From NCBI GenBank assembly GCA_963797055.1, contig CAWCOD010000006.1, positions 573,642 to 637,641 of the forward strand: a DNA stretch of 64,000 nucleotides. Reading direction: 5' to 3'. How positions within the stretch are numbered: the stretch's first letter is position 1; every line of letters begins with the position of its first letter. The translations under genes and the position numbers were made by a program. Below the pieces are notes generated by a model. The model ran no database searches. It worked only from the letters and a program-made list of their open reading frames with translations, and was not told the origin of the DNA. This DNA is from an uncultured Holophagae bacterium. Its GTDB lineage: Bacteria > Acidobacteriota > Thermoanaerobaculia > Thermoanaerobaculales > Sulfomarinibacteraceae. Shown here one piece after another: positions 1,214-63,483 of the stretch.

Positions 1214-1269
1214 GGGGCTCGGGACTCGGGACTCGGGACTCGGATTTCGGATTTCGGATTTCGAATTTT
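1214..1269. repeat. 8 in-register heptamers: GGGGCTC, GGGACTC x3, GGATTTC x3, GAATTTT
   Basis: Read directly. Starts 13 nt after the Lon-like stop. Confidence 0.95.
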
Positions 1270-1333
1270 TTGTGACCAGGATGTGATCTGCATCGCATGG
1301 GCACCGCCCCCGATGTCCGAATCTCGATTGTAT

Positions 1334-1363
1334 TTGACACCCTAGCTTCAGGGATGGCAGAAT
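1334..1363 (+). promoter_or_regulatory. Possible sigma70-type promoter (TTGACA, 18 nt, CAGAAT) for the M23 peptidase gene
   Basis: TTGACA at 1334-1339 and CAGAAT at 1358-1363. By-eye match only. Confidence 0.3.
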
Positions 1364-1418
1364 CTGCGAGCGATGAGCGCCGCGGTTGCGGTGTCCATCG
1401 GGGAGGGGGACTGGGCTT

Positions 1419-2300
1419 ATGGCCCAACGGCTGAATACGATCATCATCGTTCCTCATAGCCAGGCAAAGTTCTTCAAATTTTCGTTTTCGACCCGGACGA
1501 TCATGTTGGCCGCCGCCGGGTGTGCCTTGGCGCTCATATTATCGGCGTTCGCGATCGCGTACACGGGAAGCGCGGTGAATCGCAGGGCCGAGGTTCAGCG
1601 GTTGCGCTCCGAAAACCAGCAACTGGCCGAGGTCAACCAACGCCTCGAGGATACTGTGGTCGCGGTGCAAGGCCGACTTGACGAGTTCGAGGAGCGAACT
1701 GCACGCTTAGCGTTGGCCGCCGGCATGGCAACCGACCCGGTTGGGTTCGAAGACCGCACGGTCGGTGAGGAGCGGATTGGAAGCGGCGGCCCCTACGACC
1801 GGCTGCCGGGCTCCCCGGCGACGCTTCAGCTTCAGGGAGATCTGATAGGCAAAAAGCTCGACGATGTGGAGGAGTCCCTCGAATCGCAGACCCGCGTCTT
1901 TGCCGCCACCCCCAGCATCATGCCCGTCATGGGTTTGATGACCGATGGCTTCGGTCGTCGCAAGGATCCCTTCACCGGTCGGCGGGCGTTCCATCGCGGG
2001 CTTGATATTTCGGCGCGACGTGGCACTCCGGTTCAGGCTCCGGCTGGAGGAGTTGTGGTCTTCACCGGGCGTAACGGCGGGCTGGGAAAGACCATCCGGG
2101 TCGCCCACGGGTTTGGATTCATGACCGTCTACGGCCACCTCGACTCGATTGCGGTCGAGCCCGGGGATGAGGTCCGGCGCGGCACCGTGCTCGGGGCCCT
2201 CGGCAGCTCCGGTCGATCGACCGGTCCTCACCTGCACTACGAGGTCCACGTGGACGGAGCGGCTGTGAACCCCCTGTACTACATGCTCAGCTCGAACTGA
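1419..2300 (+). CDS. M23/LytM family metallopeptidase with N-terminal TM helix and coiled coil
   Basis: HRGLDISA and GPHLHYEVH zinc motifs. ATG 1419 is preceded by GGGGAGGGGGA. The ORF-track start 1386 is less likely. Confidence 0.9.
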   Translation: MAQRLNTIIIVPHSQAKFFKFSFSTRTIMLAAAGCALALILSAFAIAYTGSAVNRRAEVQRLRSENQQLAEVNQRLEDTVVAVQGRLDEFEERTARLALAAGMATDPVGFEDRTVGEERIGSGGPYDRLPGSPATLQLQGDLIGKKLDDVEESLESQTRVFAATPSIMPVMGLMTDGFGRRKDPFTGRRAFHRGLDISARRGTPVQAPAGGVVVFTGRNGGLGKTIRVAHGFGFMTVYGHLDSIAVEPGDEVRRGTVLGALGSSGRSTGPHLHYEVHVDGAAVNPLYYMLSSN

Positions 2301-2556
2301 GGACCACCGCCCACACCACCACAGTTCCGGGCTCCGGGTTGATCCCTCCGTTGAACGGAACAGAAAAACTCCGGACCTGGAATCCGGAACTCGAGGCCCT
2401 GAAGTCGGAACAAGGGCCGAACGCCCGTTGAAATCCTCAGCGGCATACTCTACGCTGCCGGAGCCCGGTGTCTGGGCATTGATGGCCTCGGCCTCGTGTT
2501 GTTGACAATACAGGGCGTGTGCTGCTGCACAGGGCTCCGGGATCAAGGAATCAACT

Positions 2557-5343
2557 ATGAACCTCATTGAAAAAGGCATTGATGCCGTCTTTGGCTCAAA
2601 GCACGAGCGAGACATAAAACGCATGCGGCCCATGATTCGGGAGATCAACGATCTCGAACCGGAGATGGAGGCCCTGGACGACGATCGGCTGCGCGGGCGA
2701 ATCGACGAGATTCGAGAGCGCGTACGGGCGTCGTTGACCGACCTGCCAGACGAGGCACGCGCCCGGAGCGTGATGGTCCAAGAGGTTTTGGATCGGGAGT
2801 TGGTAGAGGTCTATGCAATCGTCCGTGAGGCGTCGAAAAGGGTGACGGGGATGCGCCACTTCGACGTCCAACTGGTCGGAGGCATCGTGCTCCATGAAGG
2901 CCGGATCGCGGAGATGAAGACCGGTGAGGGCAAGACCCTTGTGGCGACCCTCGCTGTGGCACTCAACGCGCTCAGCGGTCGAGGGGTTCACGTCGTTACC
3001 GTCAACGATTACCTGGCGCAGCGTGACGCGGACTGGATGGGGAAAATCTACCGGTTTCTCGGCTTTTCTGTCGGCTGTATCCAGAATCAAATGAAGGATG
3101 ACGAGCGCAAGGCTGCCTACGGAGCCGATATCACCTACGGTACGAATAACGAGTTCGGCTTCGACTACTTGCGGGACAACATGAAGTTCTCCCTCGATCG
3201 GATGGTCCAAAGGGACCATGCCTACGCCATCGTCGACGAGGTGGATTCGATTCTAGTGGATGAGGCCAGAACGCCGCTTATCATCTCCGGCCCATCTGAG
3301 GTGTCCGTCGATCTCTATTACAAGGTCGACGGTGTGATTCCGAAACTCGGTCGTGGCGAGGAAATCGAGGACAAACACGGCAACAAGGAGGTCACCGGCG
3401 ACTATCTGGTGGATGAGAAGGCCCAGACAGCGACCCTCACCGAGCAGGGGATGCAGCGGGTCGAGAAGATCCTCGGTGTTGAAAACCTCTGGGATCCGTC
3501 GCAGACCGAAATTCTCCACGCTGTGAATCAGGGGCTGCGCGCCCACTCACTGTTTGAGCGGGACCGCGAGTACATCGTCAAGGACGGCGAGGTGATCATC
3601 GTTGACGAGTTCACCGGAAGGTTGATGTCGGGCCGGCGCTGGTCCGACGGTCTGCACCAGGCTGTGGAGGCCAAAGAAAAGGTCAAGATCCAGTCGGAGA
3701 ACCAGACGCTGGCAACGGTCACCCTGCAGAACTACTTCCGGATGTACGACAAGCTGGCGGGGATGACCGGTACCGCTGAGACCGAGGCCGAAGAATTTCA
3801 GAAGATCTACGGGCTGGATGTCGCCGTGATCCCGACCAACGTCAATATGGTCCGGGACGATGCGGCCGATGTGGTCTACAAAACCGAAAAGGAGAAGTTC
3901 CGGGCGGTGATCGACGAGATCCAACGGAGCCATGAGCGGGGCCAGCCGGTCCTGGTGGGTACGGTCTCGATCGAAAAGTCGGAGCGGCTGGACAAGTTGC
4001 TGCAGCGTCGCAAGATCAAGCACGTTGTGCTGAACGCCAAATACCACGAGCGGGAGGCCGACATCGTCGCCCAGGCCGGTCGGAAGGGAGCGGTGACCAT
4101 CGCCACCAACATGGCGGGCCGAGGCACAGACATCGTGCTGGGTGGCAATCCGGAAGGTTTGGCGAGGATGGAGGCCGATCCCGGCGCGGATCCGGAGGGC
4201 TATGAGAGGGCGTTGGTCAAGTACACCGAATTGTGTGTTACTGAAAAGGAGGAGGTGCTCGCCGCCGGCGGCCTCCAGATCATCGGCACCGAACGTCACG
4301 AGGCCCGCCGGATCGACAACCAGTTGCGCGGTCGATCGGGCCGGCAGGGGGACCCCGGTGCGTCCCGTTTCTTCCTGTCTTTAGAAGATGACCTGATGCG
4401 GATTTTTGCGGCCGATTGGGTGCGCAAGATGATGGATCGGCTTGGGATGGAAGAGGACGTGCCCATCGAGTCGAAGATGGTGTCCAAGTCCATCGCCCGA
4501 GCGCAGACGCAGGTTGAAGGACGGAACTTCGATATCCGCAAGCACCTGCTCGAGTACGACGACGTCATGAACAAACAGCGTGAGGCCGTCTATCGTCTCC
4601 GCCGGCAGATTCTCGAAGGGGTGGAGGGCCGCGACTACATCATCCGGGTGGTTGATGAAATCGTTGCCAGCATGATCGACCGATTCTGTCCCGAGGACGC
4701 CGATCCGGAGGACTGGGACACCGCCGCCATGGACATCGAATACCGATCCTATTTCGGGATCACGGTGGAGCAGGTGGGGGTGGACTGGCAGAAGGTCAAC
4801 CGGGTGGAGCTCGAGGAACAGTTGGTGGACGGGGCCAAGCGCCACTATCACGAACGGGTGGAGCGCTTTGGTGACGACGAGTTTAAAAAGCTCGAGAAAT
4901 TCCTCCTCCTCGACACGGTGGATCGCCAATGGAAAGACCACCTTCTGGCTCTGGACCATCTGAGAGAGGGCATCGGTCTGCGCGCGTACGGCCAACGCAA
5001 CCCCCTGGTGGAGTACAAACGCGAGTCTTACGCCCTGTTCGAGGATATGTGGGAGCGGATCGAGGACCACGTGGTGAAGTTCCTCTACCACGCCGAACCG
5101 GTGGAGGACTATCAGCAGCGCCGGCGCGGTGTCACGACCACTCTGTCTCACCCGGACGCCGCCGGGCTCGCCAAATCCCATGAGCAGCAGGAGAGGGCGG
5201 CGAGCACACCGGTCGGTGGGCCGACGAAACCCTCCACGGTTCGCCGGATGCAACCCAAGGTGGGACGAAACGACCCGTGTCCCTGCGGATCGGGCAAGAA
5301 GTACAAAAAGTGCTGCGGGGTGGACTCCGCGGCGGGGAGGTAA
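2557..5343 (+). CDS. secA: Preprotein translocase ATPase SecA
   Basis: 928 aa. Motor motifs [13 protein letters not shown] and [20 protein letters not shown]-terminal zinc finger [14 protein letters not shown]. Confidence 0.98.
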
Positions 5344-5348
5344 GAGGG

Positions 5349-6818
<1,470 letters not shown>

Positions 6819-6822
6819 CACC

Positions 6823-6914
6823 AGGGAGCAGGAAGCAGTTGGCAGGGGCCAATCTCGCGACCTCCGCTCCCTGCTCTCTGCTCCCTGCACCCTGTTCCCC
6901 GCTCCCTGCACCCT
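6823..6914. repeat. Inverted heptamer arrays: AGGGAGC/AGGAAGC (6823-6836), spacer, then 7 in-register units GCTCCCT/GCTCTCT/GCACCCT/GTTCCCC (6866-6914)
   Basis: Read directly. Fills the guaB-gmd spacer. Confidence 0.9.
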
Positions 6915-6932
6915 GTCTGGTAGACTCCGCCA

Positions 6933-14751: not shown

Positions 14752-14835
14752 AGCAGGGAGGAGGGAACACGGAGCAGGGAGCAGGGAGCAAGCAATTCGA
14801 AATTCGAAATTCGCAATTCGCAATTCGTAATTTCT
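14752..14835. repeat. 12 in-register heptamers switching from AGCAGGG-type (6 units) to AATTCGN-type (6 units)
   Basis: Read directly. Lies 28 nt upstream of the OPT start. Confidence 0.95.
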
Positions 14836-16884: not shown

Positions 16885-17059
16885 AACAGGGGACAGGGGA
16901 CAGGGAGCGGGCCCCGCCCGCCCGGATGCAAGATGCAAGATGCAGGATCCCCCGCCCACCCGAGCCCGATCCCGAGCCCGAGCCCGTTACCGTTACCGTT
17001 ACCGAACGAAGAACCAAGCACGAAGAACGAAGAACGAAGAACGAAACCACCCACCCACC
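16885..17059. repeat. Composite array: 11 heptamers (ACAGGG-, TGCAAGA-type plus C-tract boxes), 7 hexamers (GAGCCC x4, GTTACC x3), 8 heptamers (GAACGAA-type, ACCCACC)
   Basis: Register counted base by base: 16885-16961, 16962-17003, 17004-17059. Confidence 0.9.
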
Positions 17060-17217
17060 CGGGTCGTGAAAGGGCACGATGGGTGGGCGTGAAGCTCTGA
17101 TGATTTTGGAAGAGCATTATCAGCGGTGGGGGTCCTTCGTTGCACCCCGGTTCTTCGTCGCGCTTCTCGTGAGGATGCCAGGCACCGACATGGAGATCGG
17201 AATGCGAGGGTGGAAAT

Positions 17218-17440
17218 CTGCCGGCGGCAGCGGCCAGGACGAGGGCGGGCAACCGGTGTCCGGGGCAGATGGCGGCATCGGTGATGAGCGGCCGCAATCC
17301 GGGGCAACCCCAACTGCCCCTGATGACTGTCGCCGCTCGCTGTCCCCAGCCGCTGTCCCTGTACGCTGCCGCTGCCTCTCGGGCATCGCAAGGAGACGGA
17401 AACGCAGACACCCCACCTCACGCTTTCCCGGATGAAGCAA
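17218..17440 (+). repeat. Dispersed repeat family 1, copy A (about 220 nt)
   Basis: Shares ordered blocks with 23074-23374: GCAACCGGTGTCCG, GCATCGGTGAT, CCGCAATC, CTGCCCCTGATGACTGTC, GCCTCTCGGGC, GGAGACGG, GACACCCCAC, TTCCCGGATGAA. Confidence 0.85.
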
Positions 17441-17443
17441 ACC

Positions 17444-17472
17444 AAAAAACCCCGCCCACCGGGTGAGCGGGG
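17444..17472 (-). terminator. Rho-independent terminator of the Trp-rich protein gene
   Basis: Minus strand reads CCCCGCUCAC-CCG-GUGGGCGGGG followed by U6. Confidence 0.85.
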
Positions 17473-17484: not shown

Positions 17485-17514
17485 GCCCGAGCCCGAGCCC
17501 GTTACCGTTGCCGG
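17485..17514. repeat. Hexamer array (GCCCGA x2, GCCCGT, TACCGT, TGCCGG), including a 24-nt direct repeat of 16971-16994
   Basis: CCCGAGCCCGAGCCCGTTACCGTT is identical at 16971-16994 and 17486-17509. It overlaps the stop and last codons of the upstream gene. Confidence 0.9.
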
Positions 17515-21249: not shown

Positions 21250-21319
21250 AATTCGAGTCCCAAACCCCGAATTTCGAGTCCCGAATCCCGAGTTCCGAAC
21301 CCCGAAACCCGAGTCCCGA
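21250..21319. repeat. 10 in-register heptamers ending in CGA/CAA (AATTCGA, GTCCCAA, ACCCCGA, ATTTCGA, GTCCCGA ...)
   Basis: Read directly. Follows the pcm stop and a CCCCGCCGCCCACC box. Confidence 0.9.
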
Positions 21320-22844: not shown

Positions 22845-23001
22845 TGTTTCGACCTCCGAGGCGCTGCCAGGCACCGACCTCCTGTTGCAGTTCCGGGATC
22901 CGTCCAGCGGCAGACCCAGCGCCGGCGAGCGTCTCCACCGACAGCATCCAGAATGGCCGGTGCCAGGTGGGCACGATGGGCAGGCGTGCCACTCCAGGCA
23001 C

Positions 23002-23043
23002 CTTGAAGTTGAAAGTTAAACGTTGAACGTTCCCACCCACCCC
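23002..23043. repeat. 6 in-register heptamers (CTTGAAG, TTGAAAG, TTAAACG, TTGAACG, TTCCCAC, CCACCCC)
   Basis: Read directly. The inverted partner lies at 23375-23398. Confidence 0.9.
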
Positions 23044-23073
23044 GAGCGCGGTTGGGAGAGGGGTGCGTCGATC

Positions 23074-23374
23074 AGCGGCAGTCGGCAGCGGCCGGGACAG
23101 GGGCAGCAACCGGTGTCCGAGGGACTCGGCAGCATCGGTGATCAGCGACCGCAATCTGACGCAATCGCCGCTGGAACACTGCCGCGGCCCCTGATCGCTG
23201 CCGCAACCGCCGATCACGGACGCTGCCCCTGATGACTGTCCCTGTTCGCTGTTGCCAGCCGCTATCGCTGAACGCGGCCTCTCGGGCCCGGGCACCCGGC
23301 TTGCCCTCGGGCGACGCTGTGGCACGCGGAGACGGGCACCCGGACACCCCACATCACGTGTTCCCGGATGAACC
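23074..23374 (+). repeat. Dispersed repeat family 1, copy B (about 300 nt, with an internal CCCCTGAT duplication)
   Basis: Collinear blocks shared with 17218-17440. The 3' module is also shared with 34377-34463. Confidence 0.85.
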
Positions 23375-23398
23375 AAATTTGAACGTCTAACGTTCAAC
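23375..23398. repeat. Inverted TTGAACG-type heptamers (AAATTTGAACGTCTAACGTTCAAC)
   Basis: Reverse complement of the unit type at 23002-23029. Overlaps the stop codon at 23394-23396. Confidence 0.85.
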
Positions 23399-39475: not shown

Positions 39476-39479
39476 GCCC

Positions 39480-40940
39480 ATGAGCACCTCCACCGTCGAC
39501 ACCCGTGTCATGCTGGACAACACCGCCGACGATCCCACTCGTCGGGCGCCGTTGGTCCTGAATCACAATGAGTTCGATTTCATCACCGACACCGTTTGCG
39601 GCGTGGTGGAACAGAAGACACCACGGGCCTGGTACATCGCCTTTGGCATCTCGCTGAGCATGACCGGTGTGCTCGCGGTGATGGTGGCCTACCTGGTCGG
39701 CGTGGGCATCGGAGTTTGGGGTCTGCAGGTCCCGGTGGCCTGGGGCTGGGCGATTGTCAACTTCGTCTTCTGGGTCGGCATCGGTCACGCGGGAACGCTG
39801 ATCTCCGCGATTCTGTTTCTTCTCCGCCAGAAGTGGCGGACGAGCATCAACCGGTTCGCCGAGGGCATGACGATCTTCGCGGTGGCCTGCGCCGGGATTT
39901 TCCCCGGCATCCATGTCGGCCGAATCTGGGTGGCCTACTGGCTGGCTCCCATCCCGAATCAGATGCAGATGTGGCCGAATTTCCGATCACCGCTGTTGTG
40001 GGACGTTTTCGCGGTGGGTACCTACGCCACCGTGTCGCTGCTGTTCTGGTATATGGGTATGATCCCCGATCTGGCCACCCTGCGCGACCGCGCCACCACC
40101 AAGGGTCGCTGGCTGGCCTACGGTCTGCTCAGCATGGGTTGGCGGTCCTCGAATCGGCACTGGCACCGATTCGAGATGGCCTACTTGCTTCTCGCCGCGC
40201 TGGCGACTCCGCTGGTGCTGTCGGTGCACTCGGTGGTGAGCTTCGACTTTGCGGTGTCCATCATCCCCGGGTGGCACACGACGATCTTCCCGCCCTACTT
40301 CGTGGCCGGTGCGATTTTCTCGGGCTTCGCCATGGTGGTGACGCTGGTGATTCCAACCAGACATTTCCTCCATCTCGAAGAGATCATCACCCTGCGTCAC
40401 CTGGAGAACATGTCCAAGATCATGTTGGCCACAGGCATGATGGTGGGGCTGGCCTACTCGACCGAGTTTTTCATGGCCTGGTACTCGGGAAACAGCTACG
40501 AGGCGTTCACTTTCATGAACCGCGCCTTTGGTCCCTATGCGTGGGCCTACTGGATCATGGTGACCTGCAACGTCTTGGTGCCTCAGGTTTTCTGGTTCAA
40601 GAAGGTGCGAACGAACCTGGTGGTGATGTGGATCGCATCGATCCTGATCAACGTCGGGATGTGGTTCGAGCGGTTCGTCATCGTCGTCAGTTCCCTCAGC
40701 CGAGATTTCCTGCCCACGAGCTGGGGGTACTACCGGCCATCCATCGTGGACATCCTCACCTTCGCGGGGAGCTTCGGACTGTTCTTTACCCTGTTCCTGC
40801 TGTTTGTGAGGTTCCTGCCCATTATTGGAATGGCCGAGGTCAAGGGTGTGATGCCGGCGGCGCTCCACGACGAGCCGGGACACGGTGACTATCACGGTGA
40901 CATCACCGAGCGCTCGGCGCGTCGCGGAGGTGACCGGTGA
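39480..40940 (+). CDS. actC: ACIII subunit ActC (NrfD/PsrC-like quinol-interacting membrane subunit)
   Basis: Polytopic membrane protein. ATG lies 5 nt after the actB stop. Operon position fits. Confidence 0.88.
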
Positions 40941-41497
40941 CCTACGAACGACCCAACACCGACGCCACCGGCGATCTCTACGGTTATCTGGTGTCATTCG
41001 ATAACGTTGATCAGTTGCTCGCTGGAGCCGAAACGGTGCGGGACGCCGGCTACAAGGAGTGGGACACCCACACGCCATTCGTGGTCCACGGGTTGGACGC
41101 CGCAATGGGTGTTCCGCCGACGATTCTGCCGTACATCGTGTTTCTCGGCGGCCTCACCGGTATGATGTGCGGACTGCTGCTGCAGTGGTACACCAACGCC
41201 TTTGACTACCCGTTCCTCATCTCGGGCAAGCCCATATTCAGCCTACCGGCAAACATCCCGGTGGCCTTCGAGACCACGATTCTGTTCGCAGCCATCAGTG
41301 CCTTGGTGGGGATGCTCGCCCTCAATAATCTGCCCCAGCTCTACCACCCCCTGCACTCGAGCCGAATGTTCAAAAAAGTCACCGACAATCGTTTCATGAT
41401 CAGCATCGAGGCGCGCGATCCACTCTTTGATCGCACAACCACGCGACAACTGCTGGAGGGCCTCGGTGGGTCAGAGGTCGAGGAGGTGGTGGGGTGA
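40937..41497 (+). CDS. actD: ACIII subunit ActD (DUF3341-like)
   Basis: [25 protein letters not shown]... plus C-terminal TM helices. GTGA start/stop overlap with actC. Confidence 0.85.
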
Positions 41498-42141
41498 AAA
41501 TGCCACGCTGGCTCTTCTATGCGGTGGTGGTGATCATCGTCCTGTCGTGGGTGCCGCTGGCGGTGATCCTGCGGGCCCGCAACACCATGTCCTCGAAACC
41601 GAGGATCCACATCATCCAGGACATGGACAATCAGCCGAAGTTCAAGACCCAGGCGCGGAATCGGCTGTTCGCCGACCGGCGCGCCATGCGGGGGGTGGTG
41701 CCAGGGACCGTGGCCCGCGGCGAGCTGGACGCCGATTCCGCATACTACTTCGGCAAGGTGGGGGAGGACTGGGTCGAGACCCTGCCGGTTCCGGTGACCA
41801 TGCAGCTCATGGAGCGCGGACGGCAGCGTTTCGAGGTCTTCTGCGCCCCGTGCCATGGTCTGGCAGGCGCCGGTGACGGCATGGTGGCGAAACGAGCCGA
41901 AGAGCTTCAGGAGGGGACCTGGACGCCTCCCGCGTCGTTCCATTCCGAACTGGTTCGCGGACGCACCGACGGCCATCTGTTCAACACGATCACGAACGGA
42001 ATCAGGAATATGCCCGCCTATGCGCCGCAGATCCCGGTCGAGGACCGCTGGGCCATCGTGGCCTACGTCCGGGCCCTGCAGCGGAGCCAGGGTGCCCCGC
42101 TCGAGGACGTGCCGGCCGACCTCAGGGCGCAGTTGAGGTGA
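41494..42141 (+). CDS. actE: ACIII subunit ActE (monoheme cytochrome c)
   Basis: Single CAPCH motif and an N-terminal TM helix. Start overlaps the actD stop. Confidence 0.85.
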   Translation: MKMPRWLFYAVVVIIVLSWVPLAVILRARNTMSSKPRIHIIQDMDNQPKFKTQARNRLFADRRAMRGVVPGTVARGELDADSAYYFGKVGEDWVETLPVPVTMQLMERGRQRFEVFCAPCHGLAGAGDGMVAKRAEELQEGTWTPPASFHSELVRGRTDGHLFNTITNGIRNMPAYAPQIPVEDRWAIVAYVRALQRSQGAPLEDVPADLRAQLR

Positions 42142-43352
42142 TGATGAAGAAGGCAGTGGACATCACGGACATCGAGCTGCGCATTGATCCGGTGCTGCCC
42201 CTGTGGCTCGGCGGCGCGGCTGTGGCGGCGGTGGTGGGAATCGGCGGTGCCCTGGCGCTGGCCATGACCACCGAACACGGATGGGACCGACTGTTGGAGA
42301 CGTATCTCATCAGCTACTCGCTGTATCTCGCGCTCACCCTCGGAGCCCTGTTTTTCGTCATGCTGCAGCACGTGACCCGGGCGGGATGGTCGGTGGTGGT
42401 CCGCCGCATCGCGGAGGCGATGGCCACCAATGTCTGGCTGATGGCCATCCTGGTGACACCGATCGTTCTCGGCATGCACCATCTGTACCATTGGTCCCAC
42501 CTCGAGGAGGCGGCCCACGACCCCATTCTCGCCGCCAAGATGGGTTTCCTCAATCCAACGTTCTTTGTGGTGCGGTTGGCGGTCTACTTCGCGATATGGG
42601 GCGTGCTCGCGTGGTATTTCTACCGGACCTCGGTGCGGCAGGATGTCACCGGAGACCCAGCCCTGACGATTAAAATGGAGCGGGTGTCCGCCTTTGGTCT
42701 GATCCTCTTTGCCCTGTCCGCGAACTTCGCGGCCTTCGACCTGCTGATGTCACTGGATCCCCATTGGTTCAGCACGATCTTCGGGGTCTATTTCTTCGCG
42801 GTCAGCGTGGTTGTGTTTTACGCTGTGATGCCTAAAACCCTGGTGGCCCTGCAATCCAAGGGTGTACTCGACGGGGCGGTGACAGTGGAGCATTACCACG
42901 ACCTCGGGAAGTTCCTCTTCGCCTTTACGGTCTTTTGGGCCTACATCGCCTTTTCCCAGTACATGTTGATCTGGTACGGCAACATCCCCGAGGAGACCGA
43001 GTGGTACCTCAAACGGCAGACCGGCGATTGGGCGTGGGTGAGTCTGGCCCTGATCATCGGCCACTTCGTGATTCCATTTCTGATGCTGATTTCGAGGTAC
43101 GTGAAACGCCGTCCGGTGCTTCTCGCAGGGGTCGGTATCTATATGGTGCTCATGACCTGGTTGGATATCTACTGGCTGGTGATGCCTGAATTCAGCCCCG
43201 GGGTGGCCCGCTTCGGCCTGATCGACATCCTGTGTTTTCTGGGCCTGACCGGTGTGTACTCGAGTGTGCTCGCGTTCACGCTCCGGCGGCATTCGTTGAT
43301 ACCCGTGGGTGATCCCAGGTTGCACGAGTCGTTGGTCTTCAAGAACTCCTAA
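42138..43352 (+). CDS. actF: ACIII subunit ActF (second NrfD-like membrane subunit)
   Basis: Polytopic membrane protein. Start overlaps the actE stop. Operon position fits. Confidence 0.85.
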   Translation: MMMKKAVDITDIELRIDPVLPLWLGGAAVAAVVGIGGALALAMTTEHGWDRLLETYLISYSLYLALTLGALFFVMLQHVTRAGWSVVVRRIAEAMATNVWLMAILVTPIVLGMHHLYHWSHLEEAAHDPILAAKMGFLNPTFFVVRLAVYFAIWGVLAWYFYRTSVRQDVTGDPALTIKMERVSAFGLILFALSANFAAFDLLMSLDPHWFSTIFGVYFFAVSVVVFYAVMPKTLVALQSKGVLDGAVTVEHYHDLGKFLFAFTVFWAYIAFSQYMLIWYGNIPEETEWYLKRQTGDWAWVSLALIIGHFVIPFLMLISRYVKRRPVLLAGVGIYMVLMTWLDIYWLVMPEFSPGVARFGLIDILCFLGLTGVYSSVLAFTLRRHSLIPVGDPRLHESLVFKNS

Positions 43353-43356
43353 TGGT

Positions 43357-43464
43357 GATTTTGAATGTTGAATTTTGAATTCTCGATTTCCACGTGCGTG
43401 CGCAACGGAGCATTGGGGTGGTTGACCGTCATTCAAAATTCAAAACTGAGAATTGAGAATTCGA
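43357..43464. repeat. Heptamer-armed hairpin element: 5 heptamers (43357-43391), 38-nt core, 5 heptamers (43430-43464)
   Basis: Arms built from GATTTTG/AATGTTG/AATTTTG/AATTCTC versus CATTCAA/AATTCAA/AACTGAG/AATTGAG/AATTCGA. Confidence 0.9.
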
Positions 43465-43471
43465 GGAAACT

Positions 43472-43753
43472 ATGAGATACGACGATCCCGATGTCCCTGC
43501 GTCCGCGATCGTAGGCATTCTCGGAGCGATTCTGCTGTTTGCGATCATCGTCGGATTACAGGGTCTGTTCTACTCCATGGAGCGCAAGGAACTGGCGCAG
43601 AAGATCGCCGACAATCCGTACGAACCGCTCAAACGCCTCGATGCGGATCAGCTCGAAATTCTCAATAGCTACGGTTGGGTCGACCAGCAGGCGCAGACCG
43701 TCCACATTCCCATTCGTCGCGCCATGGAACTCGTCGTCACTGAATCGCAATAA
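43472..43753 (+). CDS. Small single-TM protein (93 aa) downstream of actF; possible accessory ACIII subunit
   Basis: GAGG lies 5 nt upstream of the ATG. TM helix ASAIVGILGAILLFAIIVGLQGLF. No family recognised. Confidence 0.55.
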   Translation: MRYDDPDVPASAIVGILGAILLFAIIVGLQGLFYSMERKELAQKIADNPYEPLKRLDADQLEILNSYGWVDQQAQTVHIPIRRAMELVVTESQ

Positions 43754-43857
43754 TTCTCAATTCTCAGTTCTAAATTTTGAATGAACCCCTGCCCGCCCAA
43801 CATGAACCGGGTGGGTGGTGGGAATTTAGAATTGAGACTTCAAAATTGAGACTTCAC
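43752..43857. repeat. Heptamer-armed hairpin element: 5 heptamers (43752-43786), 36-nt core CCCTGCCCGCCCAACATGAACCGGGTGGGTGGTGGG, 5 heptamers (43823-43857)
   Basis: Read directly. The arms contain the stop codons of both convergent genes (43751-43753 and 43854-43856). Confidence 0.9.
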
Positions 43858-45068
43858 TCATAGCGAAGGGCGTCGATGGGATCGAGCGCCGACGCCTTGG
43901 CGGCCGGGTAGGTCCCGAAGAAAATGCCGACCAGGGCGGCGAATCCGAACCCGATGCCCACGGCCCAGAGCGGAACGTGGGCCGGAGGAAAGCCTGGGAT
44001 GGCCTTGGCTCCCAGTACGCCCAACCCCCATCCGGCCAACACGCCCACCAGACCGCCCAGCAGGGAAAGCGTGACGGCCTCGATCAGGAACTGCACCAGG
44101 ATGTCGGATTTGCGCGCGCCCACGGCCTTGCGGACGCCGATCTCGCGGGTTCGTTCTGTGACCGAAACCAGCATGATGTTCATGATGCCGATACCGCCCA
44201 CCAACAGTGCGATGCTGACCACGCCGCCGACCACGCTGGTCAGCGTACCGAGAATAGCGCCGGTGGTCTCGAGGATCTCTTCCTGAAGGACAACCCTGAA
44301 GTCGTTGCTTTTGCCGTCAGCGATCCGGTGGCGCGATCGGAGCACCTCGGTGATCTGGTCCCTGGCCAGCTCCACCTGCTCCGGGCTGTAGGCCTGGAAG
44401 TCGAGAAAAAGCCTTTTGAAGGCGTCGTGGCCGTAGAGGTCTCGGGCGGTGGTGATGGGGATCAGGACGAGATCGTCCGAATTCTGGCCGAACATCTCGC
44501 CCATCTCCTCCATGATGCCAACCACAGTGAAGCTCCCCTGACCGATGATGATCTCCGTGCCGACGGGCTCGTCGCCGATCTCCAGCTCGCGGACGATCTC
44601 GGTCCCGAGAATGCACACCGGCGCCCGGCGGTCGAGATCGAGGTCCGAGAAGAAACGACCTTGGTCCACCCAGTGGATGTTGACCTCCTGGTGGGATGCG
44701 CCCACCCCGAGCAGCGTGGTGGAGTGCTGGCGGTCTCGGTAGCGGACGCGTTCGCCGCGGAAGAAGAGGGGATTGAAATACTCGATGGCGGTGGCTCGAT
44801 CCATGATGGCGAGCCCGTCGTCATAGGTCAGGACCACCTCCTTGCCGGCCAGATCGGGATCGTTGAGGTCCTGCCGGGGCTGGACCCGGATGTAGGTGGC
44901 GCCCACGCTTGCCAGGCGATTCTCGATGACGTAGTTGAGACCCTGGACGATGGAAACCACGGCGATCACCGCCGCGACACCGATGATGATCCCCAGAGTT
45001 GTCAGGAGAGACCGCATCTTGTTACCGCGGATCGCCTGCAGCGCGATGCGGAAGTTGTCCCAGATCAT
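43854..45068 (-). CDS. ABC transporter permease, MacB/FtsX family
   Basis: N-terminal TM helix, large periplasmic domain and C-terminal FtsX-like 3-TM bundle ([13 protein letters not shown]). Confidence 0.9.
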
Positions 45069-52656: not shown

Positions 52657-52730
52657 CATGTCGGTGCCAGGCGCCGCCGCAGTATGTCGAACTCGCACTA
52701 CGACTCGATTTCGACGGTGCCTGGCACCGG
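52657..52730 (-). repeat. 74-nt MITE-like element with palindromic 13-mer ends (GGTGCCAGGCGCC 52663-52675; GGTGCCTGGCACC 52716-52728)
   Basis: Reverse complement is collinear with 57637-57710. Confidence 0.85.
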
Positions 52731-52761: not shown

Positions 52762-52805
52762 CACGCCCGATCAACGGGTCCACTCCCGATCCAGGTGGGC
52801 GGGGG
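52762..52805 (+). repeat. Second copy of the 45-nt module CACGCCCGATCAACGGGTCC...
   Basis: Matches 11787-11831. Confidence 0.7.
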
Positions 52806-52859
52806 AATCTGCAATCTGCAATCTGCAATCTGCAATTCGTAACGGGCGGGTGGGGGACC
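52804..52859. repeat. 8 in-register heptamers (GGAATCT, GCAATCT x3, GCAATTC, GTAACGG, GCGGGTG, GGGGACC) flanked by G-tract boxes
   Basis: Read directly. Confidence 0.9.
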
Positions 52860-54746: not shown

Positions 54747-54818
54747 CCGGTGCCAGGCACCGTCGAAATCGCATCGGAGCACGAGATATGTACGTTGGCG
54801 GAGGTGCCTGGCACCGCC
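54747..54818 (+). repeat. MITE-like element copy (GGTGCCAGGCACC 54749-54761; GGTGCCTGGCACC 54803-54815)
   Basis: Collinear with 57637-57710 (CCGGTGCCAGGCACCGTCGAAA...). Confidence 0.85.
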
Positions 54819-54890: not shown

Positions 54891-54918
54891 AAACAACGTA
54901 CAACCCACAACCTACAAC
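54891..54918. repeat. 4 heptamers ending ACAAC (AAACAAC, GTACAAC, CCACAAC, CTACAAC)
   Basis: Read directly. Overlaps the stop and last codons of the citrate synthase gene. Confidence 0.85.
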
Positions 54919-56054
54919 CTGCTTGGAGCTGGCTCAGTCAGATAGACGGCCCCGGGCTCGATCATGGCGCCGTCCGGCAGATACTCCAGACAGTGAGCCA
55001 TCCATCCGGTCTGAATCGCGAGGCAGAAGGGGATCGGGAAACCCGAAGCCGGCAAGCCCAGGGGGTGGTAGAGCAGCCCGGTAATACTGTCCACGTTGGC
55101 AAAGATCCCCCGGCTTCCGAGCGCAGATTCGACCTCATCGCGCAGCCCCATGTAGATTCTCCACAGCTGTCCCATTCCACGCGAGGCGAGAAGCGATCGG
55201 GCGAAAGGTTCCAGCGCCGTCACCCGGGGATCGGGACACGAGTAGACGCGGTGACCGAACCCCGGGAATCGATGACGACGGGCCAGGCCGTCTCGTGCCC
55301 AGGATCGTGCTTCCGCCGTCGTGGAGAAACCGGCGAGCATCTCGAAGGCGAGTTGGTTGGCACCGCCATGACGGGCCCCGGACAACGCGCCCATGCCGGC
55401 GAGGACCGCCGATCCGAGATCCGCCCCGGTGGATGAAACCACCAGAGCGGCGAGGGCGGCGGCGTGGAGACCGTGCTCCGCCTGAACGATCAGGCTGGCA
55501 TCGAAGGCTCGGACCTCGTCGGCCTCGGGCTGGCGTCCAAGGACCTGGAACAGCCAGTTGGCCGAGTAGCCGAGATCGTCGGATGGATCCACCGGGTTTT
55601 TGCCGTCGAGGTGTCTGATGGCTGCCGCGGCCAGAGAGGCCGTCCAGCTCAGGATTCGGGCCGGGCGGCGCCACTGGGCGTCGAGACTGATGTCATCGGC
55701 CTCCGGGATCTGACAGGCGGCTACGGTCAGCATGGTCCGAAACTGGGCGAGCGGGTGGGCCCGGAAGGGGACCGTGGCGAGGGCCTGGAAGGCGGATCGG
55801 GGCGGGGTGCGCCACCTGCGGAGTTCAGCTGACCATGAGTCCAGTTGGGTTGAATCCGGCAGCTCTCCAAACAGGACGAGGAAGGAGACCTCCTCGAAAC
55901 TGCTGTGCTCCACCAGCTCCGCCACGTCGTACCCGCGATAGAGCAGTCGGCCGCGAACTCCGTCGATCAGCCCGATGGCGGTGTCACCGGCCACCAAACC
56001 ATCGAGCCCGCGGGTGTAGCGCTGGACGGCATCAGATGGCGGCCTGCCGATCAT
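54912..56054 (-). CDS. Citrate synthase family protein (catalytic triad intact)
   Basis: SGARHGGANQ (His), FPGFGHRVY (His), FANVDSITG (Asp). 380 aa. Confidence 0.88.
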   Translation of the reverse strand: MIGRPPSDAVQRYTRGLDGLVAGDTAIGLIDGVRGRLLYRGYDVAELVEHSSFEEVSFLVLFGELPDSTQLDSWSAELRRWRTPPRSAFQALATVPFRAHPLAQFRTMLTVAACQIPEADDISLDAQWRRPARILSWTASLAAAAIRHLDGKNPVDPSDDLGYSANWLFQVLGRQPEADEVRAFDASLIVQAEHGLHAAALAALVVSSTGADLGSAVLAGMGALSGARHGGANQLAFEMLAGFSTTAEARSWARDGLARRHRFPGFGHRVYSCPDPRVTALEPFARSLLASRGMGQLWRIYMGLRDEVESALGSRGIFANVDSITGLLYHPLGLPASGFPIPFCLAIQTGWMAHCLEYLPDGAMIEPGAVYLTEPAPSRL

Positions 56055-57262
56055 CCGTTCCTCCCCGCCGGAAACGGACGCTCCGTCGGCCCCACATAGC
56101 GGCTCAGTGGCCGGTAAAGACGAATGTCGTGCAGGGTTTCGCGCACAAGCGCCACCATGCCGGCGGTCCGGGCCACCGCGATGAGGCAGGGGATCTCGGC
56201 CGGTTCGGCTCCAAGGAGGTGAAACACCAGGGCTCCGTAGAGGTTGATGTTGACGAAGATGCCTCGCGGCGCCAACGCCAGTGTCGCCGCCTCCTCAACG
56301 GCGCGAGTCACCTCATAAAGTTGTCCCTGTCCCTGTTGCCGGGCCAGGGAGGCCGCCGCTTTGCGCAGCACCACAGCTCGGGGGTCGGCCATGCGGTAAG
56401 CGCGGTGGCCGAACCCTGGAATCACCCCGCCCCGCGCCACGGTGGAGTCCACCCACCGGGTGGCGGCATCGGGGTCCTCCAACGCAAGCAGTCGCTCGAT
56501 AATGTGTTCACCGGCGCCGCCCTGATGGCGGCCGGTCAGGGCCGACAGACCGGCCACGACGTTGTAGTAGGGGTCAGCCAGGCATGATGCAACGATCATG
56601 GAGGTGAAGGTAGGCGCGTCGAGACCGTGGACGGCGTAAAGCACCCAGAGGAGATTCAGTGCCCGTCGTTCCTCATCCGAGGGATCCCTTCGCACCAGCG
56701 CCCTCAGGACCCCGTCGCCAAGGCTGATCTCCGGACCCGCGACGGGGGAGGTGGTATGGCCGCGACGTTGGTCCACGATTTGGCAGACGAGCGATGCAAC
56801 CTGCCCGACGATGCGAAGCTCGCTCCATTGGCTCCGTCCCTCGATGTCGTCGTCAACGGTCAATTCGTGACAGCCCACCGTTGAGATCCCTGCGCGCAGA
56901 ATCCGGGTTGGGTGGACCGACGGTTGGAAGGTCGCGATGAGGTCGAGGACGTCTTTTGGGAGGCCGCGGCTGCACCTCAGGTTTCGGCGAAAATCAACAA
57001 ACCCTTGCGGCCCCTCGTCCGCAGTTTGGCCGGTGATGAGCAGGTAGGCCGTCCGTTCGAAGTCCGGCCGATGGGCGAGGACCTCGATGGGAACTCCGCG
57101 GTAGGCGAGGTGTCCGCTTGACGGGTCGAGCCACATGACCCTGGTGGCCGCAGCGATGACGCCGGTCAGCCCCGGCCCGACATCTGTGGTGACCGGCCAC
57201 TGGATGCTCGGAGCACACCAATCGAAGCCGTGACCAAGCGTGTGGATGACGGAATCGGACAT
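56051..57262 (-). CDS. Citrate synthase paralog with Asn in place of the catalytic Asp
   Basis: TGRHQGGAG and IPGFGHRAY are conserved, but the NVD-equivalent reads FVNINLYGA. ATGA overlap with the downstream paralog. Confidence 0.8.
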   Translation of the reverse strand: MSDSVIHTLGHGFDWCAPSIQWPVTTDVGPGLTGVIAAATRVMWLDPSSGHLAYRGVPIEVLAHRPDFERTAYLLITGQTADEGPQGFVDFRRNLRCSRGLPKDVLDLIATFQPSVHPTRILRAGISTVGCHELTVDDDIEGRSQWSELRIVGQVASLVCQIVDQRRGHTTSPVAGPEISLGDGVLRALVRRDPSDEERRALNLLWVLYAVHGLDAPTFTSMIVASCLADPYYNVVAGLSALTGRHQGGAGEHIIERLLALEDPDAATRWVDSTVARGGVIPGFGHRAYRMADPRAVVLRKAAASLARQQGQGQLYEVTRAVEEAATLALAPRGIFVNINLYGALVFHLLGAEPAEIPCLIAVARTAGMVALVRETLHDIRLYRPLSRYVGPTERPFPAGRNG

Positions 57263-57307
57263 TTAAAGAGGATACCCGAATTGCAGTTGCGAGTTTCCCC
57301 ACCCGCC

Positions 57308-57335
57308 CAGAGTTCAGAGTTCAGATCCACCCACC
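57308..57335. repeat. 4 heptamers (CAGAGTT x2, CAGATCC, ACCCACC) after an ACCCGCC box
   Basis: Read directly. Confidence 0.8.
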
Positions 57336-57440
57336 TCGAGCGCTTGTTGGCGCGACGACCGGGCGTGCCACTTCTGACACTTTCGGGAGGATGTGCTTTG
57401 AATTGCCCGACATTGTGGGGCCCCGAACAGTGTCAGGGGT

Positions 57441-57586
57441 GGCAACCTGCCGGCGGCAGCGGTTGTGGCCGTGGCCGTGTTCGGCGGCCATGTCCGATCC
57501 TGTACGAAGGATCAGAGGCCTTACGGCCACCCGCTGGTGACGGCTGGTCACCGCGGCCACCGGCCGCGAGTAACCTCGGGAAGCGC
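57441..57586 (+). repeat. Repeat module C (hairpin-rich, about 145 nt), copy 1
   Basis: Reverse complement of 63065-63204 is collinear, starting GGCAACCTGCCGGCGGCAGCGGTTGTGGCCGTGGCCG. Confidence 0.85.
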
Positions 57587-57636
57587 GGTTGGGAGATGGG
57601 CGCGCAGAAGTCGGCAAATCAAAACAAACGCACGGG

Positions 57637-57710
57637 CCGGTGCCAGGCACCGTCGAAACCGATTCGTTGTACGAGGTCGACATACTGCGGCGGTGCCTGG
57701 CACCGACATG
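57637..57710 (+). repeat. MITE-like element copy (GGTGCCAGGCACC 57639-57651; GGTGCCTGGCACC 57692-57704)
   Basis: CCGGTGCCAGGCACCGTCGAAACCG...GTCGACATACTGCGGCGGTGCCTGGCACCGACATG. Confidence 0.85.
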
Positions 57711-57760
57711 CCCGCCTATTGAGCGGAGAATCTAGCCCCTAGCCCCTGGGATGGGCGGGG

Positions 57761-62754: not shown

Positions 62755-62894
62755 AACCCGCCCCGAGTCCCGAGCCCCGATTCTCTCCCTCCCGTCCGTG
62801 ACCGCACAAAATCTCAATTCTCAGTTTTGAGTTTTGAATTGCCCTTCGACGTGCACATCTCCCGACCGCGCTCCCCGAGGGCGCGTATCTCGGA

Positions 62895-62970
62895 GGTGCC
62901 TGGCATCCCGATTCGCCAACGCCGGCCGTCCGATTCATCACGCTGGGGCGAATCGGCGTGCCTGGCATCC
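62895..62970. repeat. Direct GTGCCTGGCATCC repeats flanking a CCGATTCGCC...GGCGAATCGG hairpin
   Basis: Read directly. CGTGCCTGGCATCCTCACGGGAAGCGCGACGA... continues as the reverse complement of 17125-17190. Confidence 0.8.
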
Positions 62971-63064
62971 TCACGGGAAGCGCGACGATGAACCGGGGCG
63001 CAACGAAGTACCCAAGCCGGCCACAATCGAGCCTCCGGCCCCTCACCGCGCCCATCCCCCTACA

Positions 63065-63204
63065 GCGCTACCCGAGGTTTCGCGGCCGGTGGCCGCGGTG
63101 ACCAGCGTACCAGCGTTTGGCCGTAAGGCCTCTGATCCTGTAAAGGATCGGACATGGCCGCCGCACGCGGCCACGGCCACAACCGCTGCCGCCGGCAGGT
63201 TGCC
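63065..63204 (-). repeat. Repeat module C, copy 2 (inverted)
   Basis: See 57441-57586. Confidence 0.85.
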
Positions 63205-63318
63205 CCCTTAGACATTGTTGGGACCTCACGGGTTGAACTTGCCAGCACCTTGGTTCCCAACAATGTCAAAGACGGCACGCCCGCCATACGCGCCCACCTC
63301 GCTCCGGGTGGGCGGGAG

Positions 63319-63367
63319 GAATCTGCAATGTGCAATCTGGAATTCGCAGTTCGAAATGGGTGGGTGG
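63319..63367. repeat. 7 heptamers (GAATCTG, CAATGTG, CAATCTG, GAATTCG, CAGTTCG, AAATGGG, TGGGTGG) between G-tract boxes
   Basis: Read directly. Confidence 0.85.
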
Positions 63368-63407
63368 GAGGCCCTGAACTCTGAGCTCTGACAACGGTAT
63401 CGATAAC

Positions 63408-63483
63408 GGGCTCGGGCTCGGGCTCGGGCTCGGGAGGGCGGGCGGGGCATCTTGCATCTTGGATCTGGGCGGGAGGGTGGGGG
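63408..63483. repeat. Composite: GGGCTC x4, GGGAGGGCGGGCGGGG, CATCTTG x2/GATCTGG, GGGCGGGAGGGTGGGGG; inverted counterpart of 16911-16985
   Basis: Same order of hexamer array, G/C box, heptamer array and G/C box as the reverse complement of the 16.9-kb block. Confidence 0.85.

Follow-up and report, generated by a model that had tools for sequence, protein, structure and literature searches.

The question raised by this locus, a 64-kb stretch of contig CAWCOD010000006.1 (positions 573,642 to 637,641; assembly GCA_963797055.1) from an uncultured Holophagae bacterium of the acidobacterial class Thermoanaerobaculia, is what the arrays of short tandem units in its intergenic spacers are and where they come from. 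We refer to the whole stretch as the window. An original prediction had reported 19 intervals of in-register 7-nt and, in places, 6-nt units, and had treated them as free-standing microsatellites. Our analysis points instead to arrays of the kind known as short tandemly repeated repetitive (STRR) sequences or heptameric long simple sequence repeats (SSRs), which here would be modules of copied, lineage-specific, mosaic and often hairpin-forming intergenic elements rather than independent microsatellites. We hold this reading with moderate confidence, and that judgement already includes a proposed descent of the elements, as gene-less derivatives, from cassettes that enclose a gene of the PF05635 family.

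Genes in the window were called with a codon log-odds model and checked with Pfam, which gave a partition into 55669 bp of coding and 8331 bp of non-coding DNA. Periods of 2-15 were then scanned with a main criterion of three units and at most one mismatch, and with a second, stricter scan at 21 nt. Under the main criterion, period 7 covered 355 of the 8331 non-coding bp and 16 of the 55669 coding bp, or approximately 43 bp per kb against 0.3 bp per kb; period 6 covered 107 bp of non-coding and 41 bp of coding DNA in the same partition, periods 5 and 8-12 had zero coverage in the non-coding DNA, and the signal at period 4 reflects GGGN boxes. The stricter scan recovered zero arrays of any period in 100 Markov shuffles of the non-coding DNA. 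Tandem Repeats Finder placed period-7 or period-6 arrays within 17 of the 19 intervals, the exceptions (23375-23398 and 25247-25274) being degenerate runs of two to three TTGAACG-like units, and it reported further arrays beyond them at 34358-34373, 57732-57747, 62760-62780 and 62823-62837. With coding DNA and shuffles nearly or wholly empty, the existence of the predicted arrays and the concentration of period 7 in non-coding DNA are well borne out.

Their extent is smaller than had been claimed. Arrays are present in the longer spacers (15 of the 28 of at least 90 nt), but they do not fill most of this sequence: the 19 intervals total 1251 nt, or 15% of the non-coding bases, and take up the greater part of only about six short spacers. 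By type, arrays occupy 5 of 7 convergent, 9 of 19 tandem and 2 of 7 divergent spacers, and long tandem spacers bear them at both edges. The 7-nt register is indeed held where the unit changes, across 8 units at 1214-1269, 12 at 14752-14835 and 10 at 21250-21319. The recurrence of unit families at unlinked loci, also predicted, was recovered by self-comparison and unit scans; the window has 12 canonical units, and GCAATCT, AGCAGGG, GGGACTC, TTGAACG and AATTGAG each occur at three or more loci. Arrays were also said usually to abut boxes with G3 or C3 tracts, and here the adjacency stands while the frequency does not: scored by a strict pattern within 15 nt of an interval, boxes lie near 10 of the 19 intervals, so that "usually" becomes about half. 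Arrays overlap coding sequence only at terminal codons and otherwise lie outside Pfam-supported gene bodies, and the claim that they supply the stop or last codons of flanking genes holds, with seven stop codons inside arrays, spread over six intervals.

Comparisons within the window and with other genomes (loci of related or comparison genomes are designated by L numbers) show that arrays have been duplicated into unlinked spacers in blocks that keep their order, and that these blocks are common to related genomes that share no gene synteny. Within the window, 16913-17000 is the reverse complement of 63393-63477 at 85% identity with the order of modules kept; 52762-52859 and 63276-63373, each consisting of a G-box, a GCAATCT array and a second G-box, are 79% identical; and three hairpin elements of the AATTGAG/AATTTTG family (33720-33821, 43357-43464 and 43752-43857) are mutually homologous. 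Outside it, L314, a locus from a metagenome-assembled genome (MAG) without gene synteny, carries counterparts of window mosaics that are 86-93.5% identical over 170-216 nt; for comparison, the coding DNA of the syntenic relative L463 reaches only 73-85% identity to the window. The L314 matches include one to the 16885-17059 mosaic at 86% over 216 nt, in which even variant units within the GAACGAA array are identical. Likewise, L213 matches the 52793-52859 block at 95-98% over 42-46 nt.

Larger repeats are interspersed with these modules. Two families of 250-300-nt foldback elements were observed, one at 57307-57604 and 63047-63340 and the other at 17220-17441 and 23078-23377 with a fragment at 34380-34470. 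They lie between array and box modules and have fold z-scores of -4.7 and -2.0; the members at 57307-57604 and 63047-63340 are inverted copies that are 78% identical, and relatives of both families occur in other genomes, including L314 and L463, at 72-94% identity without gene synteny and without an Rfam match. A coding role for these larger repeats was considered and rejected: their open reading frames (ORFs) are not conserved between inverted copies, and we therefore treat them as non-coding. Also dispersed in the window is an element of approximately 70 nt with two palindromic boxes, GGTGCCWGGCACC, approximately 40 nt apart; there are 10 matches against 0.2 expected, and the element is present in L314 and L463. 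Rfam searches at the gathering score and at E-values up to 1 returned no credible family for the arrays, the boxes or the larger elements.

The vocabulary of units is also lineage-specific. Thermoanaerobaculia loci contain 21 perfect heptamer arrays, of which 7 are built of a unit from the window's set of 12, against approximately 0.2 expected by chance, and none of the arrays in control loci uses any of the 12. The junction GAGCCCGAGCCCGTTACCGTT, which joins two different hexamers, was found in 64 stretches, nearly all from Thermoanaerobaculia MAGs, with more than 20 in a single MAG. By comparison, heptamer arrays as such are broadly distributed. Period 7 was the sole period recurring across many of 160 SecA-anchored loci from many taxa, with period-7 arrays common in Pyrinomonadaceae, Chloracidobacterium and Thermoanaerobaculia, and three copies of GCAATCT were found in at least 119 stretches of a species-representative genome collection, from a wide range of phyla and with inverted pairs frequent among them. 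When a control heptamer was chosen arbitrarily with the same composition, three tandem copies of it turned up in at least 120 stretches, again in many phyla, against approximately 0.3 predicted by chance; arrays of any heptamer are thus pan-bacterial, and GCAATCT is not special. A universal heptamer vocabulary was accordingly rejected: GCAATCT is found in many phyla, but so is its control, and vocabularies differ by lineage. This breadth is in keeping with a 2007 survey that, according to the papers citing it (PMC4692102, PMC4679880), found heptanucleotide repeats to be over-represented in the genomes of many bacteria.

Orthologous spacers provide a view of turnover. The nearest SecA relatives of the window are Thermoanaerobaculia-type Acidobacteriota MAGs with 78-85% identity, and the best relatives of its PurF-like protein are 90-92% identical. 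One of these, L463, which comes from a 432-kb contig, is syntenic with the window at 11-33 kb, with a PurF-like protein 90% identical and coding DNA 73-85% identical. Judged from such alignments, arrays gain, lose and swap 7-nt units, and whole mosaics are either present or absent. For the arrays at 21250, beside the PCMT gene, and at 23375, at the inositol phosphatase stop, L463 keeps the unit family with different unit number and order, and the promoter-proximal sequence nearby is conserved. At 16885 the two genomes share an anchor and continue from it with different units, ACAGGGG in the window and AGGCAGT in L463. A mosaic of 420-550 nt flanks the phosphatase gene on one side in the window and on the other in L463. 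The divergent spacer at 24501-24549 is 49 nt and all array in the window; its counterpart in L463 (12809-14166) is 1358 nt long and is a mosaic of a PF05635 remnant, boxes, and TTGAACG, GAACGAA and GAAATGA arrays. In the more distant relatives L001 and L002 no arrays were found at orthologous spacers, and upstream of secA in L003 an inverted pair of a different unit flanks a GC hairpin.

Some of these modules have the potential to fold. Inverted array pairs form four elements in the window, with predicted stems of approximately 35-40 bp. Three of them are 33715-33825 (dG -40.7, z -8.8), 43745-43860 (dG -44.3, z -5.7) and 6819-6932 (dG -46.7, z -2.65); the arms of the fourth, 43350-43470, pair more weakly, with a z of only -0.6. 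The G3/C3 boxes pair into GC-rich stems, and one-sided arrays have no predicted structure. A general role of the arrays as intrinsic terminators was tried and rejected, as terminator-like sites are not above the number in shuffles and the one-sided arrays are unstructured; only three convincing terminators were found, at 17450-17472 (-), 63491-63512 (-) and near 11595, and these are box hairpins or ordinary stems adjoining arrays. The 8.3 kb of non-coding DNA has 10 G-quadruplex (G4) motifs, where 1.2 are expected (maximum of 5 in 200 shuffles), and the 55.7 kb of coding DNA has 7. Approximately 5 arrays contribute to them (1214, 6890, 16889, 24507 and 62757), in addition to the GGGCTC hexamer, and most arrays contribute none.

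A lead to the origin of these elements comes from the hexamers. Sequence comparison shows the window's hexamer module to share homology with the inverted arms that flank a PF05635 gene in related Thermoanaerobaculia. In these relatives, long inverted arms, with GAGCCC/GTTACC hexamer arrays forming their inner portions, surround an ORF of 124 aa, the TAA stop of which lies within a GGTAAC unit. This ORF belongs to PF05635, the family of the 23S rRNA intervening-sequence protein, and matches the Avd family more weakly; the PF05635 protein is a four-helix-bundle relative of Avd, the accessory protein of diversity-generating retroelements. The three hexamer arrays of the window match the cassette arm at 95-100% over 28-40 nt (16966-17005, 17486-17513 and 63393-63422), with the hexamer part of 16885-17059 at 95% and 17485-17514 at 100% over 28 nt. 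Several cassette loci in different MAGs have an identical internal deletion (MFFDFE joined to LTSLV...SEKNP..R*), which indicates that a gene-less derivative has been copied. Further out than the cassette arms, boxes and heptamer arrays with units known from the window, such as TTGAACG and GGGGCTC, are frequent in relatives and sometimes inverted. Cassettes with arms of approximately 100 nt were seen in the Thermoanaerobaculia MAG loci L317 (2851-3351), L288, L290, L293, L302, L303, L322 and L335. Contigs encoding close relatives of the cassette protein (P0121-P0240) are mostly shorter than 3 kb, suggesting that such repeats break assemblies.

The same arrangement recurs well outside this class: inverted arms made of tandem 6-8-nt units flank PF05635 genes in cyanobacteria, Bacteroidota, Nitrospinota, Vicinamibacteria and an Azospirillum 23S rRNA gene. 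In a local iterative search over the retrieved loci, PF05635 ORFs had a density of 8.4 per Mb in loci retrieved with the control heptamer and 0.4 per Mb in SecA-anchored loci, and inverted heptamer arrays stand on both sides of PF05635 ORFs in Bacteroidota-type, Lewinellaceae, Nitrospinota and Vicinamibacterales loci. We also searched plasmids with the cassette protein using tblastn, which anchors the loci on the protein rather than on arrays. This yielded 38 records, of which nearly all are from cyanobacteria (20 from Nostoc, 3 from Calothrix), and inverted short-unit arms were present around the PF05635 gene in 7 of the 8 plasmid regions examined, one of the 7 being the Azospirillum 23S rRNA gene. 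The flank-to-flank duplex was stronger than in all 200 shuffles in 6 of 11 protein-anchored loci, and in a seventh it was matched by 5 of 200. Of the PF05635 ORFs, 15 of 18 in array-anchored loci and 6 of 11 in protein-anchored loci have arrays within 130 nt; for random segments of the same loci the proportions are 8% and 18%, respectively.

Two individual sites from these surveys deserve description. On plasmid AZO_p2 of Azospirillum lipoferum 4B (L485, 13901-15221), an unannotated PF05635 ORF sits inside a 23S rRNA gene, and the arms of this intervening sequence consist of GACAGAG/GACGGAG-type heptamers that are similar to the GACAGAT repeats of Coxiella. GACAGAT heptamers, variable in number among strains, are reported in the stem of the Coxiella burnetii intervening sequence, where RNase III cleaves at the first repeat (PMC4990558). 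In a Gemmataceae MAG (L239, 2285-2343), an inverted (GCAATCT)n pair is read in frame within a Ser/Thr kinase gene, where it is inserted between HRDLKPANILL and KITDFGLA in a manner reminiscent of Rickettsia palindromic elements.

One explanation for these observations is that the elements in the window are gene-less, orphaned derivatives of PF05635 cassettes, related to them as miniature inverted-repeat transposable elements (MITEs) are to their parent elements. Slipped-strand mispairing would add and remove units, and arms built of repeats would tolerate such slips because they could still pair in several registers. If transcribed, paired arms may form long double-stranded RNA like the RNase III substrate of ribosomal intervening sequences, in which case the most likely effect would be on transcript processing or as intergenic 3'-end stem-loops; one-sided arrays are probably near-neutral remnants. 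This interpretation must be made with caution, as several observations weigh against it. Arrays far outnumber cassettes, and cassettes might simply prefer landing in array-rich hairpins. No cassette-arm match turned up for the heptamer families of the window, for which no direct test was made, and their link to cassettes is one of analogy and of neighbourhood in relatives, not of direct homology. The window itself has no PF05635 gene or fragment by tblastn with the 124-aa relative or by Pfam annotation of its genes, which also include no RAYT/Y1 or other transposase or mobility enzyme, and no target-site duplication is evident by eye at the element edges. About half of the window arrays are without an inverted partner and without predicted structure, and the preference of arrays for spacers with a gene 3' end is suggestive without being significant (14 of 26 against 2 of 7). 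Among the protein-anchored loci, 4 of 11 have no significant arm pairing, and arm units of 6 or 8 nt are as frequent as those of 7.

One may postulate, alternatively, that arrays are created and resized independently in each spacer, as ordinary neutral microsatellites with no tie to any element, through replication slippage with an intrinsic 7-nt step; an idea attached to the 2007 survey, as it is represented in later papers, ascribes that step to the footprint of a polymerase (PMC4692102, PMC4679880). This would account for period 7 being the sole recurrent period in the 160 SecA-anchored loci, for an arbitrary heptamer being as widespread as a window unit (at least 120 and at least 119 stretches, with 0.27 expected), and for the whole-unit differences between orthologous arrays of the window and L463. 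Slippage alone, however, explains neither the recurrence of ordered units and boxes at unlinked loci and in non-syntenic genomes at 85-94% identity, nor the clade-specific vocabulary (7 of 21 arrays against 0.2 expected), the two-hexamer junction in 64 stretches of one clade, or the complementary inverted array pairs, and we regard this scenario as unlikely. Selection on the arrays as cis-regulatory elements, acting through G-quadruplexes or through stem-loops that serve as terminators or mRNA stabilisers in the manner of repetitive extragenic palindromic (REP) sequences and bacterial interspersed mosaic elements (BIMEs), is a further scenario to which we give a rather low probability. The excess of non-coding G4 motifs (10 against 1.2 expected, with 7 in 55.7 kb of coding DNA), the two 100-nt convergent spacers that strong hairpins fill exactly, the two box pairs that make canonical terminators, and the comparable G4-forming GGGNATC repeats of Xanthomonas and Nostoc (PMC4692102) would all fit. 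Yet a G-quadruplex is possible for only approximately 5 of the 19 arrays, most of them (the GCAATCT, AATTGAG, TTGAACG, GATGCAA and GAACGAA arrays) having no G-tracts, and terminator-like sites are no commoner than in shuffles. Moreover, the presence, unit type and position of arrays are not conserved at the orthologous spacers of relatives, which argues against locus-specific regulatory roles.

The strict 7-nt register across unit changes could also be read as the mark of a binding platform for a protein that reads approximately 7 nt per subunit, such as a cold-shock-domain protein, for which a heptamer footprint has been discussed (PMC4679880), or the pentameric PF05635 protein, the genes of which are found next to short-unit arrays in several phyla. 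Units vary so widely within the genome and between lineages, however, that no single sequence-specific binder fits; the window arrays are without a PF05635 gene, and arm units may be 6, 7 or 8 nt, such that we consider a binding platform highly improbable. Finally, the short contigs of PF05635 cassettes, mostly below 3 kb, might raise the suspicion of assembly or sequencing artefacts, but the same modules recur across numerous independent MAGs as well as metagenome contigs, and also in cyanobacterial plasmids with finished sequences, and orthologous arrays are present in L463. Nor do the arrays seem to encode repeat peptides: a period of 7 is incompatible with a stable peptide repeat, and apart from a few terminal codons the arrays are outside Pfam-supported gene bodies. 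We attach practically no weight to either artefact or peptide coding.

The comparison with known systems helps to place these elements among them. STRR-type heptamer arrays have been unexplained since 1990, and the original description of STRR1-3 in Calothrix and Nostoc reportedly gave the units CCCCAAT, TTGGTCA and CAACAGT. The likeness to STRR drawn in the original prediction is apt, as both consist of tandem 7-nt units in several families per genome, dispersed between genes and often in composite clusters. The difference lies in the host, an acidobacterium with 62% GC, and in the unit sequences, none of the three STRR units being found among the window arrays; in addition, the window arrays are interleaved with G3/C3 boxes and copied as ordered mosaics, and include hexamer arrays. 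REP/BIME mosaics of enterobacteria and MITE-type elements that insert in frame (the Rickettsia palindromic elements) resemble the window elements as multi-copy, extragenic, hairpin-forming palindromic mosaics that are often at gene ends, and in REP/BIME and MITE-type elements copies with internal deletions likewise propagate. A REP/BIME unit is an imperfect palindrome of approximately 35 nt associated with a RAYT (Y1) transposase, whereas the arms in the window are tandem 6-8-nt units rather than one conserved palindrome. A MITE combines terminal inverted repeats with a target-site duplication and has autonomous relatives that encode a transposase; here inverted arms and propagated deletion derivatives were seen, and neither a duplication at the element edges, judged by eye, nor a transposase. 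Intervening sequences of 23S rRNA lie in helix 25 or 45 and are excised by RNase III. The Coxiella-type 23S intervening sequence has in common with the window elements a long terminal-inverted-repeat stem and repeats within that stem, and the hexamer arrays of relatives enclose PF05635; unlike it, the window elements are outside rRNA and have no ORF.

The original prediction also knew of no equivalent in GC-rich genomes outside cyanobacteria, and this was wrong, as Xanthomonas and many other bacteria carry heptamer repeats. The GC-rich Xanthomonas has intergenic GGGAATC-type heptamer repeats, inverted pairs included, and G4-forming GGGNATC repeats are found in both Xanthomonas and Nostoc (PMC4692102). 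These resemble the window in their G3-containing heptamers (GGGACTC and the hexamer GGGCTC in the window), intergenic position, the GC-rich host, the inverted arrangement of some pairs, and differences in length and sequence between related species at one spacer (PMC4692102); in the window, by contrast, G-tract arrays are a minority beside many unrelated families and separate G3/C3 boxes. TAACTGA repeats of Beggiatoaceae, cyanobacteria and Bacteroidetes are likewise intergenic direct heptamer repeats that are mixed with other heptamers and patchy across phyla (PMC4679880), but they have one dominant unit mainly upstream of start codons, whereas the window has many units and no 5'-end preference. 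The heptanucleotide SSRs of the 2007 survey, as later papers portray them, share the period-7-specific excess, the intergenic position and the scattered phylogenetic distribution, a breadth reproduced by both of our collection scans; in that portrayal the repeats are slippage products, and mosaics, inverted-pair elements and gene association do not feature. We found no paper on such repeats in Acidobacteriota, and none that extends the heptamers of PF05635 and intervening sequences to STRR-type repeats. What is new here is the presence of dense heptamer repeats of a known class in a lineage without prior description, their mosaic and foldback nature, and the PF05635 lead.

These results add Thermoanaerobaculia and, by side surveys, Blastocatellia and Vicinamibacteria to the bacteria with dense intergenic heptamer repeats, which are not a cyanobacterial peculiarity; the arrangement of repeat arms around PF05635 also occurs in cyanobacterial plasmids, in the home of STRR. 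A wider and more tentative proposal, possible but in our judgement doubtful, is that STRR-type heptamer arrays in general are arms or orphaned arms of pan-bacterial foldback cassettes that enclose a PF05635 gene. The classical 23S intervening sequence would then be one insertion site, gene-less copies would spread and decay, and the PF05635 protein would act in copying or maintenance of the arms. If this were true, the excess of heptamers across many phyla would be due to gene-less copies that decay between genes, and sometimes in frame within genes, and a cassette lead of such generality would explain heptamer repeats in bacteria. Should the cassette link hold genome-wide, the nature of heptamer repeats and the role of the PF05635 "four helix bundle protein" would become one testable question. 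On the practical side, the elements break short-read assemblies and extend ORF calls, and knowledge of them would help the annotation of MAGs. The individual features are given in Table 1.

Table 1. Arrays, boxes, foldback elements and terminators in the 64-kb window, with their setting and counterparts (positions are those of the window)
Position	Feature	Setting and counterparts	Detection
1214-1269	Composite heptamer array: GGGGCTC, GGGACTC x3, GGATTTC x3, GAATTTT	Begins 13 nt past stop of Lon-like gene; unstructured as RNA (z +2.1); G4 motif 1214-1237; no counterpart in orthologous spacers of L001 and L003	Tandem Repeats Finder
6823-6914	Inverted AGGGAGC / GCTCCCT arrays forming a predicted hairpin	Fills IMPDH-to-gmd spacer; other unit (TTTTGAG) in this spacer of L083	Tandem Repeats Finder 6866-6915, 7.1 copies
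14752-14835	12 in-register units: AGCAGGG-type x6, then AATTCGN x6	Upstream of OPT transporter gene; orthologous spacer of L463 keeps AGCAGGG-type units, box hairpin replaces AATTCGN	
16885-17059	Mosaic: ACAGGGG x3, C-box, GATGCAA x3, C-box, GAGCCC x4.7, GTTACC x3.5, GAACGAA x6, C-box		
17100-17445	Larger foldback element	Between array/box modules; paralogues 22990-23393, 34380-34470	
17450-17472 (-)	Canonical intrinsic terminator: C-box/G-box pair + T-run (10 pairs, 8 GC, TTTTTT)	Immediately downstream of hexamer array overlapping DUF6600 gene stop	
17485-17514	GAGCCC x2.8, then GTTACC-type hexamers	GTTACC unit provides TAA stop (TTA on + strand) of DUF6600 gene	Tandem Repeats Finder
21250-21319	Ten in-register NNNCCGA units (GTCCCGA family)	Starts 18 nt past PCMT gene stop	
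23002-23043	TTGAACG-type x4, then C-box CCCACCCACCCC	Homologous block in another spacer of L463	Tandem Repeats Finder
23375-23398	Degenerate TTGAACG units, small hairpin	Holds stop codon of inositol monophosphatase gene; clear 4-unit array at orthologous site of L463	
24496-24558	GGAGCAG/GGGAGTA x6 + G-box; G4 motif	Fills 49-nt divergent spacer	
25247-25274	Degenerate TTGAACG-type units	Over stop codon of upstream gene	Missed by Tandem Repeats Finder
33720-33821	Hairpin element: CTCAATT/CAAAATT arm, C-box centre, AATTGAG arm	Exactly fills 100-nt convergent spacer; stop codon of minus-strand gene inside	
34358-34387	GAATTCG x2.3, then box CCCCGCCCACCC		Tandem Repeats Finder
34514-34548	GCAATCT x4.7 (96% matches)	49 nt past stop of threonine-aldolase-like gene; unit recurs at 52804 and 63319	
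43357-43464	AATTGAG/AATTTTG-family hairpin element	Inside alternative complex III operon	
43752-43857	Hairpin element: AATTCTC arm, C-box...G-box centre, GAATTGA arm	Fills 100-nt convergent spacer; stop codons of both flanking genes inside	
52663-52728, 54749-54815, 57639-57704; partial 17174-17186, 22863-22875, 62895-62907	Dispersed element of ~70 nt with GGTGCCWGGCACC boxes		
52793-52859	G-box, GCAATCT x4.4, G-box		Tandem Repeats Finder, 100% matches
54891-54918	ACAACCT x4	Over stop codon of a citrate synthase gene	
57297-57335	C-box, CAGAGTT x2.6, C-box	Edge of 300-nt foldback element	
57732-57759	CTAGCCC x2.3 + G-box	Directly past gene stop; unit also in L463; absent from original prediction	
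62757-62840	GCCCCGA/GAGTCCC x3, then short CTCAATT/AGTTTTG palindrome; G4 motif	Absent from original prediction	
63306-63368	G-box, GCAATCT-type x5, G-box	Paralogue of 52762-52859	
63393-63483	GGTAAC-like units, GGGCTC x4.7, G4 box, GCATCTT x2.9, G4 box	Reverse-strand copy of 16913-17000; perfect G4 motifs at 63432-63447 and 63467-63483	
63491-63512 (-)	Canonical intrinsic terminator (9 pairs, 8 GC)	Of minus-strand gene; arrays just beyond	

The genes among which these features lie are ordinary housekeeping genes. Pfam annotation identified SecA, IMP dehydrogenase, GDP-mannose dehydratase, an OPT transporter and a PurF-like amidotransferase, together with an alternative complex III operon and two tandem citrate synthases, and no tRNA, tmRNA or rRNA genes were found in the window. 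In the alternative complex III cluster (35727-43753), a hairpin element (43353-43471) separates the last large subunit gene from a 93-aa ORF, and a second hairpin element follows this ORF. The citrate synthase paralogues (54912-56054 and 56051-57262) are arranged in tandem with overlapping stop and start, and heptamer arrays are present at both outer ends of the pair.

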